From NCBI GenBank assembly GCA_965215635.1, contig CBDCEA010000004.1, positions 48,492 to 112,491 on the forward strand: a stretch of 64,000 nt of DNA, read 5' to 3'. Of the stretch, positions 40,345 through 43,522 are shown in pieces; within the stretch, counting starts at the first letter, position 1; each line of letters begins with the position of its first letter. The translations under genes and the position numbers were made by a program. The notes under the pieces are model-generated. The model had not been told where the DNA came from, did no database searches, and saw only the letters and a list, made by a program, of their open reading frames with translations. Source of the DNA: Alphaproteobacteria bacterium. Its GTDB lineage: Bacteria; Pseudomonadota; Alphaproteobacteria; SP197.

Positions 40345-40420
40345 TGGTGGGCGCACAAGGACTCGAACCTTGGACCCGCTGATTAAGAGTCAGCTGCTCT
40401 GCCAACTGAGCTATGCGCCC
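40345..40420 (-). tRNA. tRNA-Lys (anticodon CTT)
   Basis: Manual cloverleaf. Acceptor GGGCGCA/TGCGCCC. D-arm TAGCTCAGTTGGCAGAGCA. Anticodon loop CTCTTAA. T-arm GGTTCGAGTCC. Encoded CCA. Confidence 0.85.
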
Positions 40421-40751
40421 ATCCGTCCCGGCGAGCCTATAGCAGGAGCCGAATGCCCTGTCGAGACGCAGAAGCAGCCCTGGAGGTGCCGGTTTCCTGC
40501 GGACATCATGACCGGCGAGGGCATCCGGGCCGGATCCTCACAAGCCTCTTGCCCCGATAACACGTCAGTCGATCCGGTCCGCTCTTTATTCCCTGCGGCC
40601 ACGGCTCCCGGGGTATCAGTCAGGTCAACATGAATGGTTCTTGGGTGGCGTACGGACGATGGAGCCGGGGGGTTCGGGCTTCACTGATTCGAGGTCGACA
40701 CGTTGAAGGGGTGAAAAGCCCATGCAATCAGGCGTAAAGGACAATAAGTTG

Positions 40752-41841
40752 ATGCGGGACGAGATGCCACGAACGCGAGGAATGACGGTCCGCAGCTTGC
40801 GCTGGACGGCCGCTGGTACACAGATCCCGAAGTCTTTGGGCGGGAACAGGAGCTGATCCTCGGGCGAACCTGGCAACTGGTCTGTCATGTGTCGGAACTG
40901 GAAAGGCCCGGGGACTATGTCGCGCGGAAGGTGGGTCGCACCGCACTCTTCGTTGTCCGCGACCGGTCAGGCCGGATCCGGGGCTGACACAATGTCTGCC
41001 GGCACCGCGCCCACGAGCTCCTTTCGGGCAAGGGCAACCGGGTGTTCATCACCTGCCCCTGCCACGGCTGGACCTATGACCTCGACGGCACGCCGAAGCG
41101 CACACCGGGGAGCGAGAACCTTCCAGGATTCGACTGCCAGGCGATCCACCTTTCAGAAGTGCGCCTCGAGACCATCTGCGGATTCGTCTTCGTCAATCCC
41201 GATCCGGACGCGTTACCGACGTCGAGCTGGTATCCCGGTGTCGAAGAGGAACTGCGCGCCTTCGTGCCCGATATCGACGACCTGAAACCGGCCGAGGACG
41301 TGGCCGTCGAGGAGGCCTGCAACTGGAAGGTCTCGGTGGAGAACTACAGCGAGTGCCACCACTGCAAGCTGCGCCACCCGACGTTTTCCACCGGCGTGAT
41401 CGATCCCGAAAGCTACGACATTAGCCCTCAGGGTCATCGCCTGCGGCACACGACGCGCGCCGCCGTCATCGGGCGCATGACCTATGCCATCGACGGTTCG
41501 GACACCACGGCATCGCCGTACAGTTCATGGTACCTGTGGCCGAGTGTCTCGTTCCAGGTCTATCCCGGACGTGTCCTCAACACCTAATCATTGGCGTGCG
41601 AGGGACCGCCGTCGGGTTACGGTGAGGCGGGGCTGGTATTCCCGGAGCGAAAAGTGCTCCGAGGCGCTCTCGAGGCTTATCCGGCAGGATCACGAGACCA
41701 CCGTGGCGGAGGACATCAGCCTCGTGGAATCGGTGCAGCGCTGTCTCGAAAGCGGTGCCTGCGAACCGGGTCCGCTCGTCATCAATCCCCGGGGCGGCGT
41801 TCCATGGCTGGGTGCGCAAGTCCCTCGGCGAGACAGCCTGA
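40752..41841 (+). pseudogene. Rieske [2Fe-2S] aromatic-ring/QAC-type oxygenase alpha subunit (GbcA/CntA-like), disrupted by at least four frameshifts
   Basis: Pieces in three frames: MRDEMPRTRGM.. / LDGRWYTDPEVFGREQELILGRTWQLVCHVSELERPGDYVARKVGRTALFVVRDRSGRIRG / HNVCRHRAHELLSGKGNRVFITCPCHGWTYD...NWKVSVENYSECHHCKLRHP... / ...AEDISLVESVQRCLESGACEPGPLVINPRGG / AAFHGWVRKSLGETA-stop. Confidence 0.6.
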
Positions 41842-41845
41842 AAAT

Positions 41846-43522
41846 TCAGCGCTGGCGGTGTTCCCAGTCCGGATGGACCCAGACCGGGGCCTCCGACGGT
41901 TCCGGAGGCACTGCCCCGAGGATCATGTTGGACGCCTTCTCGGCGATCATGATCGTCGGCGCGTTGAGATTGCCCGAGACGATGTTCGGCATGACCGAGG
42001 CGTCCACCACCCTCAGCCTGTCGACGCCATGGACCTTGAGTTCCGGATCGACAACCGCTCGCGCGTCATCGGCGGTCCCCATCGGGCAGGTGCAGGAGGG
42101 ATGGTAGCTCGATTCGCAGGTCTCGCGGATCCACGCATCGAGTTCCTCGTCGGACTGCTTCTCGTCTCCCGGCCAGATCTCCCGGCCGCGGAAACGGTCG
42201 AAGGCCTTCTGGGCGTGGATCTCCCGGGTGAGACGCGTCCCGTCGCGCAGGCAGCGTACGTCCTCCTCTTCCTTCAGGTAGTTGAAGAAGATCTCAGGGT
42301 GTCGACGCGCATCGGCGCTTCTGATCTTCACATGGCCTCTGGAATGCGGCCGCATCATGTCGACCATCACCTGGTAGCCGTGGATGCGGTTCACGTTGAA
42401 GGCATCGTAGGTCATGGCCATGGGCAGGAAGTGGTACTGGATGTCGGGATGCTCGACCCCGGCGCGGCTGCGGATGAACCCGCCTGCCTCCATGTGATTG
42501 GTCGTCGCCGGTCCGCTCTTCGACAGGAACCAGCGGAGACCGACCTTCATCTTGCCCACGGGTGTCAGGTGCTTGAGAAGACTCACGGGCTCTCTGCATT
42601 CGTGCTGCACGAAGACCTCGAGATGGTCCTGCAGGTTCTCCCCGACCCCCGGCAGGTCATGCACCGGCGCAATGCCCAGAGCGGCGAGCTCGTCGGCCGC
42701 ACCGATCCCGGACAGCTGCAGAAGCTGGGGCGAGTTGATGGCGCCGCCGGAAAGGATCACCTCCCTTGTGGCGCGGGCCTGCTTCGTTCTTCCGTCCTGG
42801 ACGTACTCGACGCCGACCGCTGCCTGCTTCTCGAAGATGATGCGCGTGGTGAGGGCCTTCGTCTCGATCGAGAGATTGCCTCTGGTGAGAGCGGGCCTCA
42901 GGTAGGCCGACGCCGCGCTCCATCGGCGACCGTTGCGCGTCGTGCGGTCCATGCCCCCGAAGCCTTCCTGGCGGTAGCCGTTGAGATCCGGACTCTCGGC
43001 ATAGCCTGCCTCGACGGCGGCATCGGTGAAGGCCCGGTAGAGAGGATTGCTCTCAAGTCGGCCCGCCGTGACGTGGAGCGGCCCGTCGTCTCCGTGGTAG
43101 TCGTCGCGCTCGTGCTCGTGGGATTCAGCGCGCCGAAAGTAGGGCAGGACGCCGCGGTAGGACCAGCCGCGGCATCCAAGCTGGGCCCACTTGTCGTAAT
43201 CGAAGGCATGGCCGCGGATGTAGACCATACCGTTGATGGAACTCGAACCGCCGAGTACGCGTCCCCTGGGACAGTGGATCACCCGATTATTGAGCCCGGG
43301 TTCGGGTTCGGTGTGGTAGAACCAGTTGTAGCGGTCATCCCGAAGCGGCCAGGCAAACGCCGTCGGCATGTGGATCATCCAGCTGAAGAGGCCGCTGTCC
43401 TTCGGACCCGCCTCCAGCACGAGGACCCTGTTCTCCGGATCCGCGGAGAGGCGGTTCGCCAGGGTCGAGCCCGCGGATCCGGAACCGATGATGACGAACT
43501 CGGCTTCGCGGTCGTATGCCAT
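41846..43522 (-). CDS. GMC-family FAD oxidoreductase (choline dehydrogenase BetA-like)
   Basis: FVIIGSGSAGSTLANRLS (FAD GxGxxG). GMC signatures GGSSSINGMVYIRG and ACESSYHPSCTCPMG. Confidence 0.8.
   Translation of the reverse strand: MAYDREAEFVIIGSGSAGSTLANRLSADPENRVLVLEAGPKDSGLFSWMIHMPTAFAWPLRDDRYNWFYHTEPEPGLNNRVIHCPRGRVLGGSSSINGMVYIRGHAFDYDKWAQLGCRGWSYRGVLPYFRRAESHEHERDDYHGDDGPLHVTAGRLESNPLYRAFTDAAVEAGYAESPDLNGYRQEGFGGMDRTTRNGRRWSAASAYLRPALTRGNLSIETKALTTRIIFEKQAAVGVEYVQDGRTKQARATREVILSGGAINSPQLLQLSGIGAADELAALGIAPVHDLPGVGENLQDHLEVFVQHECREPVSLLKHLTPVGKMKVGLRWFLSKSGPATTNHMEAGGFIRSRAGVEHPDIQYHFLPMAMTYDAFNVNRIHGYQVMVDMMRPHSRGHVKIRSADARRHPEIFFNYLKEEEDVRCLRDGTRLTREIHAQKAFDRFRGREIWPGDEKQSDEELDAWIRETCESSYHPSCTCPMGTADDARAVVDPELKVHGVDRLRVVDASVMPNIVSGNLNAPTIMIAEKASNMILGAVPPEPSEAPVWVHPDWEHRQR

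Follow-up and report, generated by a model that had tools for sequence, protein, structure and literature searches.

CntA of Acinetobacter baumannii (PDB 6Y8J) is the closest solved relative of the gene described here. The roles of its active-site residues have been described, and the Cys-X-X-Cys pair beside the mononuclear iron is known as a feature of the Group V Rieske oxygenases (PMC10952381). GbcA (NCBIfam NF058607) and Stc2 (stachydrine demethylase, PDB 3VCA) belong to the same group, and both act on quaternary amines. The bacterial CMO-like oxygenases, Rieske/mononuclear-iron relatives of plant choline monooxygenase, have so far no biochemically characterised member (PMC6157903). Our literature searches returned neither a characterised member of the CntA-like subfamily of ~365 aa to which the present gene belongs nor a pathway combining a Rieske oxygenase with a choline dehydrogenase, and HpbB/HpbC and the CMO-like proteins are candidate leads for this subfamily. 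It is a large one, with 5,680 database matches at E <= 0.001.

We studied a member of this subfamily in a stretch of 64,000 nucleotides of alphaproteobacterial DNA (the window), where it lies between a tRNA-Lys gene and a convergent GMC oxidoreductase gene. The features of the locus are given in Table 1.

Table 1. Features of the Rieske/GMC locus and its flanks, with coordinates in the window.
Feature	Coordinates	Strand	Basis or remark
TRAP transporter fused permease, intact	38206..40329	+	Left flank; Pfam DctM; NCBIfam TIGR02123, 501 bits
tRNA-Lys, anticodon CTT	40345..40420	-	ARAGORN; Rfam RF00005, 71.9 bits
Conserved block just upstream of tRNA 5' end	40437..40465	-	Alignment of relatives
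Window-specific spacer, ~300 nt	40470..40777	.	No alignment to relatives
CntA-like (Group V) Rieske non-haem-iron oxygenase alpha-subunit pseudogene	40778..41841	+	tblastn, frameshift-aware alignment, Pfam
Lesion 1, start codon lost	40778..40786	+	Comparison with relatives
Lesion 2, in-frame TGA nonsense codon	40985..40987	+	Alignment, codon comparison
Rieske [2Fe-2S] ligand motif C-R-H...C-P-C-H	40997..41065	+	Motif scan
Mononuclear-iron region ENYSECHHCKLRH	41339..41377	+	Alignment to PDB 6y8j
Lesion 3, 1-nt insertion (+1)	41585..41587	+	Alignments
EDISLVESVQRC segment	41709..41744	+	Aligned to EDLNLVESVQRG of CntA
Lesion 4, 26-nt deletion junction	41793..41800 (~41799)	+	Alignments
GMC oxidoreductase, choline dehydrogenase (BetA) type, 558 aa, intact, convergent	41846..43522	-	NCBIfam, orthologue alignment
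groEL	43612-45246	-	Right flank
groES	45281-45622	-	Right flank, his operon beyond

Identity of the Rieske oxygenase gene

With intact homologues as queries, the gene was detected as tblastn HSPs in two frames, and it can be read in three (40784-41584, 41586-41798 and 41800-41841); the ancestral product would measure ~361-368 aa, and the intact orthologues of L040 and OY763008.1 have 361 and 368 aa. This product matched the N-terminal Rieske domain (Pfam PF00355, E 2.5e-21) and the C-terminal catalytic domain Ring_hydroxyl_A (PF00848, E 2.6e-21, covering 2-206 of the 208 profile positions), in support of an earlier note on this DNA that had recognised a decayed GbcA/CntA-like alpha-subunit gene. 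The motifs quoted there were also found on the plus strand, namely CRHRAH (40997-41014), CPCHGW (41054-41071), ENYSECHHCKLRH (Table 1) and FHGWVRKSLGETA (41800-41838).

The best solved relative was CntA, with E 9.5e-61 and full-length similarity for the intact homologue P0002 (residues 13-350, 35% identity over 336 aa) and E 9e-53 for the reconstructed window product. Stc2 ranked third among the distinct solved proteins (E 2.9e-34 with P0002). The top NCBIfam match was GbcA (E 4e-38), whose score of 130.9 bits fell below the equivalog cut-off of 670. In the pseudogene, the Rieske cluster motif takes the form CRH...(17)...CPCH. The mononuclear-iron region was in register with CntA Tyr203, Glu205, Cys206, His208, Cys209 and His213, and the Group V signature was recognised in the alignment of the window sequence and the family sequence ENYSECYHCKLRH with DNYMECYHCGPAH of CntA, in which the Cys-X-X-Cys pair, the bridging Glu and the substrate Tyr coincide. 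The elements of the 2-His-1-carboxylate site, an H-x4-H pair and the E-D segment, also align with CntA, and the EDISLVESVQRC segment holds the probable Asp iron ligand. Conserved residues have been altered in each of these regions of the window gene: CPYHGW to CPCHGW, ECYHC to ECHHC, and QRG to QRC in the EDISLVESVQRC segment.

Lesions of the pseudogene

The frameshift-aware comparison drew on the intact homologues P0001-P0009, with lesion calls made on seven homologues, and the lesions were also checked codon by codon against eight orthologues. The gene had been described as shattered by at least four frameshifts, a description that proved wrong in both the type and the position of the lesions. 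Both tblastn and the frameshift-aware alignment showed homology in a single frame from 40784 to 41584, so that the frame change claimed near 40830 is unnecessary; it is the start codon that was lost. The nature of this first lesion is ambiguous between a substitution and a 1-nt deletion. Either ATG may have changed to AGG at 40778-80, where the genes of L001, L005, L008, L009 and L027 (loci of the relatives described below) start, or one G may have been deleted after the ATG at 40782-84, where re-adding it gives the MDGPQ N-terminus of P0001/L040. No in-frame ATG, GTG or TTG occurs between the stop codon at 40745-47 and position 40889.

The frameshift proposed near 40980 turned out to be an in-frame TGA, at about codon 69 and three codons ahead of the first Rieske cluster ligand. 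It replaces a conserved Phe/Tyr codon, TTC, TTT or TAC in all orthologues, and the change from TTC to TGA needs two substitutions. TGA is a regular stop codon here, ending 28 of the 37 genes of the window. On the other hand, the frame change near 41585 was borne out as a true +1 insertion (~codon 269), with ACC TAAT CAT in the window vs ACC TAC/TAT/TTC CAx in relatives, which yields a TAA codon together with the shift of frame. Seven of the seven homologues agreed on the stop at 40985 and on the +1 at 41585. Near 41795 the frame is indeed disrupted, but by a 26-nt deletion rather than a simple shift: relatives read GGC GGC GTG ATG AGC GAG CAC TCG ATC GCC ACC TTC, whereas the window reads GGC GGC G TTC. 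This fourth lesion, near the C-terminus, takes out the conserved GVMSEHSI segment (V-M-S-E-H-S-I being gone) and shifts the frame.

The first stop precedes the Rieske cluster ligands, and the longest surviving ORF (41042-41587) is devoid of the first Cys-His ligand pair. No uninterrupted ORF for a full-length Rieske subunit was found and, because of the start loss, the TGA, the +1 insertion and the 26-nt deletion, a functional protein from the pseudogene would be impossible.

Conservation of the locus in relatives

As relatives we used eleven loci from uncultured Alphaproteobacteria MAGs. The comparison with orthologous loci that the earlier note had recommended showed the Rieske gene intact in all 11 (a single stop-free HSP in ten loci, plus L040), vs four lesions in the window. 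L040 was the nearest relative, with 80.3% nucleotide identity across 40784-43587 in a global DNA alignment. The reconstructed Rieske product was 63-67% identical to those of the relatives, and the L001 protein 64-67% identical to the others. Scans of the genome collection and of metagenomes with peptide patterns including the mutant motifs specific to the window, CPCHGWTY and ENYSECHH, returned no conspecific sequence, the best matches having 67% and 59% identity.

A convergent GMC gene was present downstream, at distances of 4 nt to 3.4 kb, in the ten relatives whose contig reaches far enough. In eight related loci the order is Rieske/GMC/groEL, with groEL directly after the GMC gene, groES and his genes further on in seven of these eight, and tRNA-Lys immediately upstream in six; L040 keeps the order even without the tRNA. 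Given that the Rieske/GMC pair is found in relatives, followed by groEL in eight loci, the Rieske gene is ancestral core content, not brought by a mobile element. The recurrence of this order, with the tRNA-Lys directly upstream in most cases, also goes against the suggestion that the tRNA marks an island integration site.

The tRNA-Lys(CTT) reported beside the gene was itself confirmed by ARAGORN and Rfam. It is 98.7% identical to the tRNA-Lys adjoining the Rieske gene in L001, L006, L008, L009, L015 and L027, and its 3' end lies 15 nt from the end of the TRAP permease gene, whose product is 85% identical over 698 aa to that of the syntenic L001 gene. The conserved block upstream of the tRNA 5' end reads, on the minus strand, TCGACA, 17 nt and TATAGG, with invariant columns CTATA..CAGG...CCTGTCGAGA; it is probably the tRNA-Lys promoter, and a consensus promoter scan made no call on it. 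The spacer that follows had no Rfam match and no similarity to the relatives' loci, it is not repeated in the window, neither a promoter nor a terminator was called in it, and its fold z-score of +1.1 was not unusual. The locus is surrounded by core genes (ilvC, mreBCD, PBP2, rodA, TRAP transporter, groESL, his), and its GC content (0.62-0.65) is like that of its surroundings. The claim that all other long genes of the window are intact did not hold: a 5-nt deletion splits the ATPase gene at 9769-11020, which constitutes a second broken gene.

Constraint on the Rieske and GMC genes

To compare constraint, counts at conserved columns were used instead of dN/dS, since synonymous sites are saturated at ~65% amino acid identity. 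Among 120 homologues, 96 columns of the Rieske protein were conserved at the >=97% threshold, and the window product departed at nine of them (five substitutions and four deleted residues), vs a mean of 0.68 and a maximum of 5 for the homologues' own departures. When only orthologues were considered, unique deviations of the Rieske product were 19/167 in the window vs 5/153 in the equally deep L001. On the contrary, those of the GMC product, counted at invariant columns, were 6/293 in the window vs 18/305 in L001. The third-position GC (GC3) of the central pseudogene fragment was 0.81, like that of functional genes. As judged from these counts, relaxed constraint is shown to be limited to the Rieske gene, so that 'degraded locus' appears an overstatement. 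The remnant has not diverged further than intact orthologues have, and this, like its GC3, indicates that the loss is recent when set against the separation of the lineages sampled.

The neighbouring GMC gene proved intact and choline-dehydrogenase-like, as claimed. Its stop codon is separated by 4 nt from the end of the pseudogene TGA (41841). Its ORF is uninterrupted and orthologues align end to end, with full-length identities of 77-84% in groEL-linked loci and 71-77% in L003, L007 and L024. The product scored 773 bits against the BetA equivalog TIGR01810 (cut-off 732.1; residues 8-537) and 839.5 bits against PRK02106. According to its conservation, the GMC gene is still under purifying selection, and therefore the enzyme presumably works on its own. 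The search for betB and betI covered the Pfam scans.

The earlier note had advised looking for a cognate, gbcB-like reductase gene, and a search of the window and of the syntenic relatives' loci gave none. No Fer2 or NAD_binding Pfam family occurred in the lists of neighbour genes. A six-frame regular-expression search for the plant-type 2Fe-2S motif C-x4-C-x2-C-x22-40-C, a crude test, gave no hit in the 64-kb window, nor did the same search in the syntenic relatives' loci, up to 21 kb long. The Ruegeria pomeroyi homologue (53% identical) has as neighbours genes with dimethylglycine-dehydrogenase-like domains (DAO, FAO_M, GCV_T), enolase-superfamily genes and a set resembling sarcosine oxidase (SoxD, SO_alpha_A3). 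This context and the BetA-type neighbour are hints of a possible activity on quaternary or methylated amines.

Discussion

The locus is very probably a unitary pseudogene, that is, an ancestral chromosomal CntA-like oxygenase gene, not island-borne, that was inactivated in this lineage by four independent mutations. The gene belongs to a conserved block consisting of the Rieske, GMC and groEL genes, usually preceded by tRNA-Lys and followed by groES and his genes. Start-codon loss, TGA nonsense codon, +1 insertion and 26-nt deletion would be four independent hits on it, in a gene-specific loss with retention of the GMC partner. We infer that the mutations are biological and not assembly errors, and real decay was also judged the likelier cause in the earlier note. 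The ancestral enzyme would have oxidised a quaternary or methylated amine, relying on a reductase encoded elsewhere.

It is unlikely that the organism carries an intact gene and that the four lesions are errors of the consensus sequence. The relatives in databases are long-read MAG assemblies, an indel-prone type of data that the window may share, single-nucleotide indels account for one or two of the four lesions, and the frameshifted gene at 9769-11020 could signal an assembly of lower quality. However, none of the single-base indels of the pseudogene lies in a homopolymer of more than 2 nt, the other lesions are a two-substitution nonsense codon and a 26-nt deletion, and the 5-nt deletion of the ATPase gene is atypical for a sequencing error. 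Furthermore, the five substitutions at highly conserved columns are about sevenfold the family mean, whereas the flanking permease, GMC, groEL and groES genes are free of lesions and match their orthologues over the whole length. A degraded accessory or catabolic island, integrated at the tRNA-Lys and including the pseudogene, has a smaller chance still of being the right explanation. It would account for the direct proximity of the tRNA, and genes of mobile or variable character do occur beside this tRNA in relatives: a tyrosine-integrase-like ORF 160 nt from its 3' end in L008, DUF4276 and DUF4143 genes in L001, and M78 peptidase and DUF3368 genes in L027. All of these lie 3' of the tRNA, whereas the Rieske gene lies 5' of it, and in the window the 3' side is taken by the syntenic TRAP permease. 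Mobility genes, a tRNA 3' repeat, a 3'-side position, variable presence and atypical composition, the marks of a tRNA-linked island, were all missing: the ORF list between 39000 and 45500 has no entries other than the genes given above, and no integrase or transposase in or beside the locus, no att-like repeat of the tRNA was found in related loci (the tRNA itself being the only match), the spacer is not repeated within the window, gene order is conserved with or without the tRNA, composition is typical, and the GMC partner is undegraded.

We consider it scarcely credible that the gene is still expressed, be it by recoding (TGA read-through or selenocysteine insertion, combined with programmed frameshifts) or in the form of separate polypeptides that function together. 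The sole point in favour of recoding is the normal codon-position composition retained by the fragments. Against it, there is no start codon in frame, the 26-nt deletion drops residues conserved in >=97% of homologues and present in CntA too, and the longest fragment is left without half of the Rieske ligands. Recoding of the TGA was rejected, as this is the main stop codon of the window and stands at a site for Phe/Tyr, not Cys or Sec. To our knowledge, there is no precedent for a gene with four different recoding events.

Annotation of the region should give one pseudogene and not several short ORFs, and metabolic reconstructions of the organism should not credit it with quaternary-amine or TMA-forming potential. 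Beyond correct annotation its importance is small, this being an ordinary loss of one gene; the fact that the clade keeps the gene paired with a BetA-type enzyme suggests a substrate class for the subfamily. As a rather speculative proposal, the Rieske/GMC pair by groESL, with no dedicated reductase, might constitute in this clade an uncharacterised route for oxidising a compound of the choline, carnitine or betaine type. The window might then be a natural knockout of its first enzyme, with the GMC enzyme kept for a separate role, e.g. betaine for osmoprotection.

The bacterial CMO-like oxygenases are, like the present subfamily, uncharacterised bacterial Rieske/mononuclear-iron proteins and relatives of enzymes acting on choline-type substrates, a resemblance that serves as a literature lead only. 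GbcA and Stc2 share the Group V character, but both are longer (~410-430 aa vs ~365 aa here), and GbcA aligns through its N-terminal half alone (profile positions 28-226 of 420), while the alignment to Stc2 is confined to the first ~240 residues. CntA/YeaW is closer. The family has in common with CntA the Rieske C-x-H...C-x-x-H motif, the active-site string N-Y-x-E-C-x-H-C-x3-H (substrate Tyr, bridging Glu, Group V Cys pair and two His ligands), the E-D-x-x-L-V-E-S-V-Q-R-G and S-E-H segments, and a similar size of ~365 aa. It differs from CntA in an identity of 35%, indicative of a separate subfamily, and in that neither the window nor any relative has a CntB/YeaX-type reductase gene beside it; the partner conserved with it is instead a GMC oxidoreductase of the BetA type, and the window copy is dead. 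In this last respect, the locus resembles ordinary bacterial unitary pseudogenes, with multiple disabling mutations, intact orthologues at the same position, constraint relaxed in one gene and a codon composition not yet eroded, and there is nothing unusual in it.

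A decayed Rieske oxygenase gene beside an intact GMC gene

The interval between tRNA-Lys(CTT) and the convergent GMC oxidoreductase gene contained no long ORF, and its three forward frames together spelled a complete Rieske oxygenase alpha subunit, the stitched product matching the Pfam families Rieske and Ring_hydroxyl_A over the full length of both. All the motifs quoted in the earlier note were present. The GMC gene, which the same note took to be intact and choline-dehydrogenase-like, was indeed uninterrupted, and its product exceeded the cut-off of the NCBIfam choline dehydrogenase model TIGR01810 (773 bits vs 732.1) and matched the choline dehydrogenase model PRK02106 with 839.5 bits. 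The TGA of the pseudogene ends at 41841, leaving 4 nt to the GMC stop codon, a spacing also found between the intact genes of L040, the locus of the closest relative.

Features of the window and of the corresponding loci in related genomes
Feature	Location	Strand	Remarks
tmRNA gene	6056-6399	-	
Transposase fragment	8027-9316		matches C-terminal half of PF21804 only
STAND-NTPase/TPR protein	10963-14670		1235 aa
DDE transposase	18875-19714		
tRNA-Lys(CTT)	40345-40420	-	ARAGORN and Rfam agree
Putative tRNA-Lys promoter block	40437-40465	-	TCGACA, 17 nt, TATAGG; just upstream of tRNA 5' end
CRHRAH motif	40997-41014	+	read in three-frame translation
CPCHGW motif	41054-41071	+	
ENYSECHHCKLRH motif	41339-41377	+	
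FHGWVRKSLGETA motif	41800-41838	+	
GMC oxidoreductase ORF	41846-43522	-	558 codons; GMC_oxred_N and GMC_oxred_C domains
Integrase-like ORF	L008, 8441-9646		401 aa; 3' side of tRNA-Lys(CTT)
DUF4276 and DUF4143 genes	L001, 4252-9229		3' side of tRNA-Lys(CTT)
M78 peptidase and DUF3368 genes	L027, 5413-7161		3' side of tRNA-Lys(CTT)

The surrounding genes are core genes, in the order ilvC, mreB, mreC, mreD, PBP2, rodA, TAXI/TRAP transporter, tRNA-Lys, pseudogene, GMC, groEL, groES, hisF-IE, hisA, hisH, hisB and hisG. The block upstream of the tRNA is invariant across relatives and its sequence looks like a tRNA-Lys promoter; a consensus promoter scan made no call there. A sub-threshold Rfam match to Plastid-ycf2 5'UTR on the strand opposite the tRNA (40347-40420, +; 32.2 bits vs a gathering score of 65.7) almost certainly reflects the tRNA read in antisense and is spurious. 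Besides the canonical groEL (43612-45246), the window holds a second chaperonin-family gene (55231-57063, -; 610 aa; Cpn60_TCP1, E 1.3e-75). A single ORF at 45723-46985 (-) carries His_biosynth (HisF-like), PRA-CH and PRA-PH domains, as do ORFs in L001 (15037-16299) and L027 (13076-14323), with sizes of 415-420 aa; this looks like a fusion of hisF and hisIE that the relatives share.

Nature of the lesions

The gene was compared with its relatives by tblastn, for which the five best-matching intact homologues were the queries, by frameshift-aware protein-to-DNA alignment with seven homologues, at the codon level with eight orthologous genes, and by global DNA alignment with L040 (80.3% identical over 40784-43587). 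All four comparisons concurred on four lesions. In lesion (a) the start codon has been lost: homology begins at 40781-84 and stays in a single frame to 41584, and this frame has no ATG, GTG or TTG from the stop at 40745-47 to 40889. Either ATG became AGG at 40778-80, the start position in L001, L005, L008, L009 and L027, or one G was deleted after the ATG at 40782-84, where its restoration would give the MDGPQ N-terminus of the intact homologue P0001/L040; the substitution and the 1-nt deletion cannot be told apart. Lesion (b) is an in-frame TGA at 40985-87, at which all orthologues have TTC, TTT or TAC. Lesion (c) is one extra nucleotide at 41585-87 (ACC TAAT CAT vs ACC TAC CAC in L040), which introduces a TAA and moves the frame by +1. 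In lesion (d), 26 nt are deleted at ~41799, leaving GGC GGC G TTC where relatives have GGC GGC GTG ATG AGC GAG CAC TCG ATC GCC ACC TTC, so that V-M-S-E-H-S-I is gone and the frame is shifted.

The earlier observation of a broken gene was essentially right, but two of its lesions were misjudged in type and position. The reading frame is continuous around 40830, the damage at this end being the start loss at 40778-86, and the change placed near 40980 is the nonsense codon (b). The change near 41585 was correctly located, and that near 41795 does shift the frame, although its cause is the 26-nt deletion. A functional product cannot be made, because the start codon is missing, translation begun at any upstream start would stop by codon 69 at the latest, half of the cluster ligands are absent from the largest fragment, and the deletion takes out a segment that even CntA shares.

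Probable genuine decay

It is improbable that the lesions are an assembly artefact. Single-base indels account only for (c) and perhaps for (a), and neither lies in a homopolymer of more than 2 nt, whereas (b) requires two substitutions and (d) removes 26 nt. The reconstructed product deviates at 9 of 96 columns with at least 97% conservation among 120 homologues, which themselves deviate at 0.68 on average and at 5 at most; substitutions make up five of these nine (CPYHGW to CPCHGW, ECYHC to ECHHC, NTY to NTN, QRG to QRC and one Met to Thr). Among syntenic orthologues only, unique deviations at otherwise invariant columns numbered 19/167 in the Rieske gene of the window vs 5/153 in L001, an equally deep lineage, but 6/293 vs 18/305 in the GMC gene, so that relaxed constraint is confined to the Rieske gene; the flanking TRAP permease, GMC, groEL and groES genes could be aligned with their orthologues over the whole length and showed no lesion. 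The argument for genuine decay is thus indirect but consistent. No conspecific genome was found in the genome and metagenome collections searched. Expression of the gene through recoding can practically be dismissed, and TGA recoding is ruled out because TGA terminates 28 of the 37 genes in the window.

The loss looks recent, since the reconstructed product (63-67% identical to relatives) is no more diverged than intact L001 (64-67% to the same relatives) and GC3 of the central fragment is still 0.81. Most likely, mutations accumulated in this lineage have recently cost it the oxygenase component of a two-component Rieske monooxygenase still kept by its relatives.

Contrary to the earlier note, not every other long gene is intact. 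At 9769-11020 (+), a second gene is split into ORFs of 134 and 327 aa by a 5-nt deletion at ~10048 (W-[DR]-IMTG); its homologues on many contigs are 418-aa AAA/ATPase_2-type ATP-binding proteins, ~90% identical. This broken gene lies, together with the transposase fragment, the STAND-NTPase/TPR gene and the DDE transposase gene, in an apparent mobile or variable region (6400-19714) adjoining the tmRNA gene, in which about 4 kb (14.7-18.9 kb) have a lower GC of ~0.60 and short ORFs with no Pfam matches.

Conserved gene order and the tRNA-Lys site

The order Rieske, convergent GMC and groEL was also found in seven loci, all from MAGs of uncultured Alphaproteobacteria: L001 (same contig as L002), L005, L008, L009, L015, L027 and L040. 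groES follows in 7/7, and his genes in L001, L027 and L040, the three loci with called genes listed. In L006 the contig ends after the Rieske and GMC genes, and L003, L007 and L024 have the pair alone. The Rieske gene is one stop-free reading frame in every relative, and its pairing with GMC is conserved. tRNA-Lys(CTT) lies directly upstream in six of these loci and is absent from L040. In L008, an AbiEi antitoxin/AbiEii toxin pair (type IV toxin-antitoxin; 11071-12757) stands between the intact Rieske and GMC genes, and therefore the pair tolerates separation.

The proposal of a degraded accessory locus drew on the adjacent tRNA-Lys as a classical island integration site. Mobile or variable genes do adjoin this tRNA in relatives, but without exception at its 3' end and not towards the Rieske gene; in the window that side is occupied, 15 nt off, by the syntenic TRAP permease. 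Since, in addition, the gene order is conserved among core neighbours and the GC content is unremarkable, the proposal is unsupported, and an island remnant is very unlikely. The different cargo on the 3' side in different relatives suggests that tRNA-Lys(CTT) serves the clade as a hotspot for integration; in the window the site is unoccupied by such cargo, and the stretches examined contained no att repeats. The Rieske gene is a genuine unitary pseudogene of an ordinary sort, lying within a conserved block of the chromosome. As the GMC gene has been maintained despite this loss, we infer that the BetA-type enzyme is independent of the Rieske enzyme.

Substrate class and relation to known oxygenases

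No CntB/GbcB-type reductase was found in the 64-kb window or in syntenic loci of up to 21 kb, Pfam lists included; it would have to be encoded elsewhere in the genome. The conserved BetA-type partner and two gene clusters hint at methylated-amine or betaine chemistry and may serve as leads. The cluster of L003 includes one gene of the enolase superfamily and one of the creatinase/M24 type. The cluster of L025/L026 (1-17092; Ruegeria pomeroyi and a metagenome contig), whose R. pomeroyi oxygenase homologue is 53% identical, contains a gene with dimethylglycine-dehydrogenase-like domains (DAO, FAO_M, GCV_T), a sarcosine-oxidase-like set (SoxD, SO_alpha_A3), two enolase-superfamily genes, a DMSP_lyase/cupin Pfam gene and a CMD-family gene; this cluster may help to narrow down which class of substrate the subfamily acts on.

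The pseudogene is a dead member of an already known kind of enzyme. Intact homologues form a large family (5,680 matches at E <= 0.001), with members of ~360-375 aa that carry only generic annotation. GbcA was the top NCBIfam model, but with 130.9 bits against a cut-off of 670 and only the N-terminal half aligned, and the alignment to Stc2 was likewise partial. The best solved relative is the carnitine monooxygenase CntA (PDB 6Y8J; full-length match, E 9.5e-61, 35% identity), with which the Rieske ligands are in register and the E-D..L-V-E-S-V-Q-R-G and S-E-H segments are shared. Also shared is the string N-Y-x-E-C-x-H-C-x3-H, which in CntA holds the substrate Tyr203, the bridging Glu205, the Cys206/Cys209 pair marking Group V, and His208/His213 (PMC10952381). 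Because of this full-length match and the kept motifs, the gene is classed with the CntA-like Group V Rieske oxygenases, in a separate subfamily that is uncharacterised, and is neither CntA nor GbcA.
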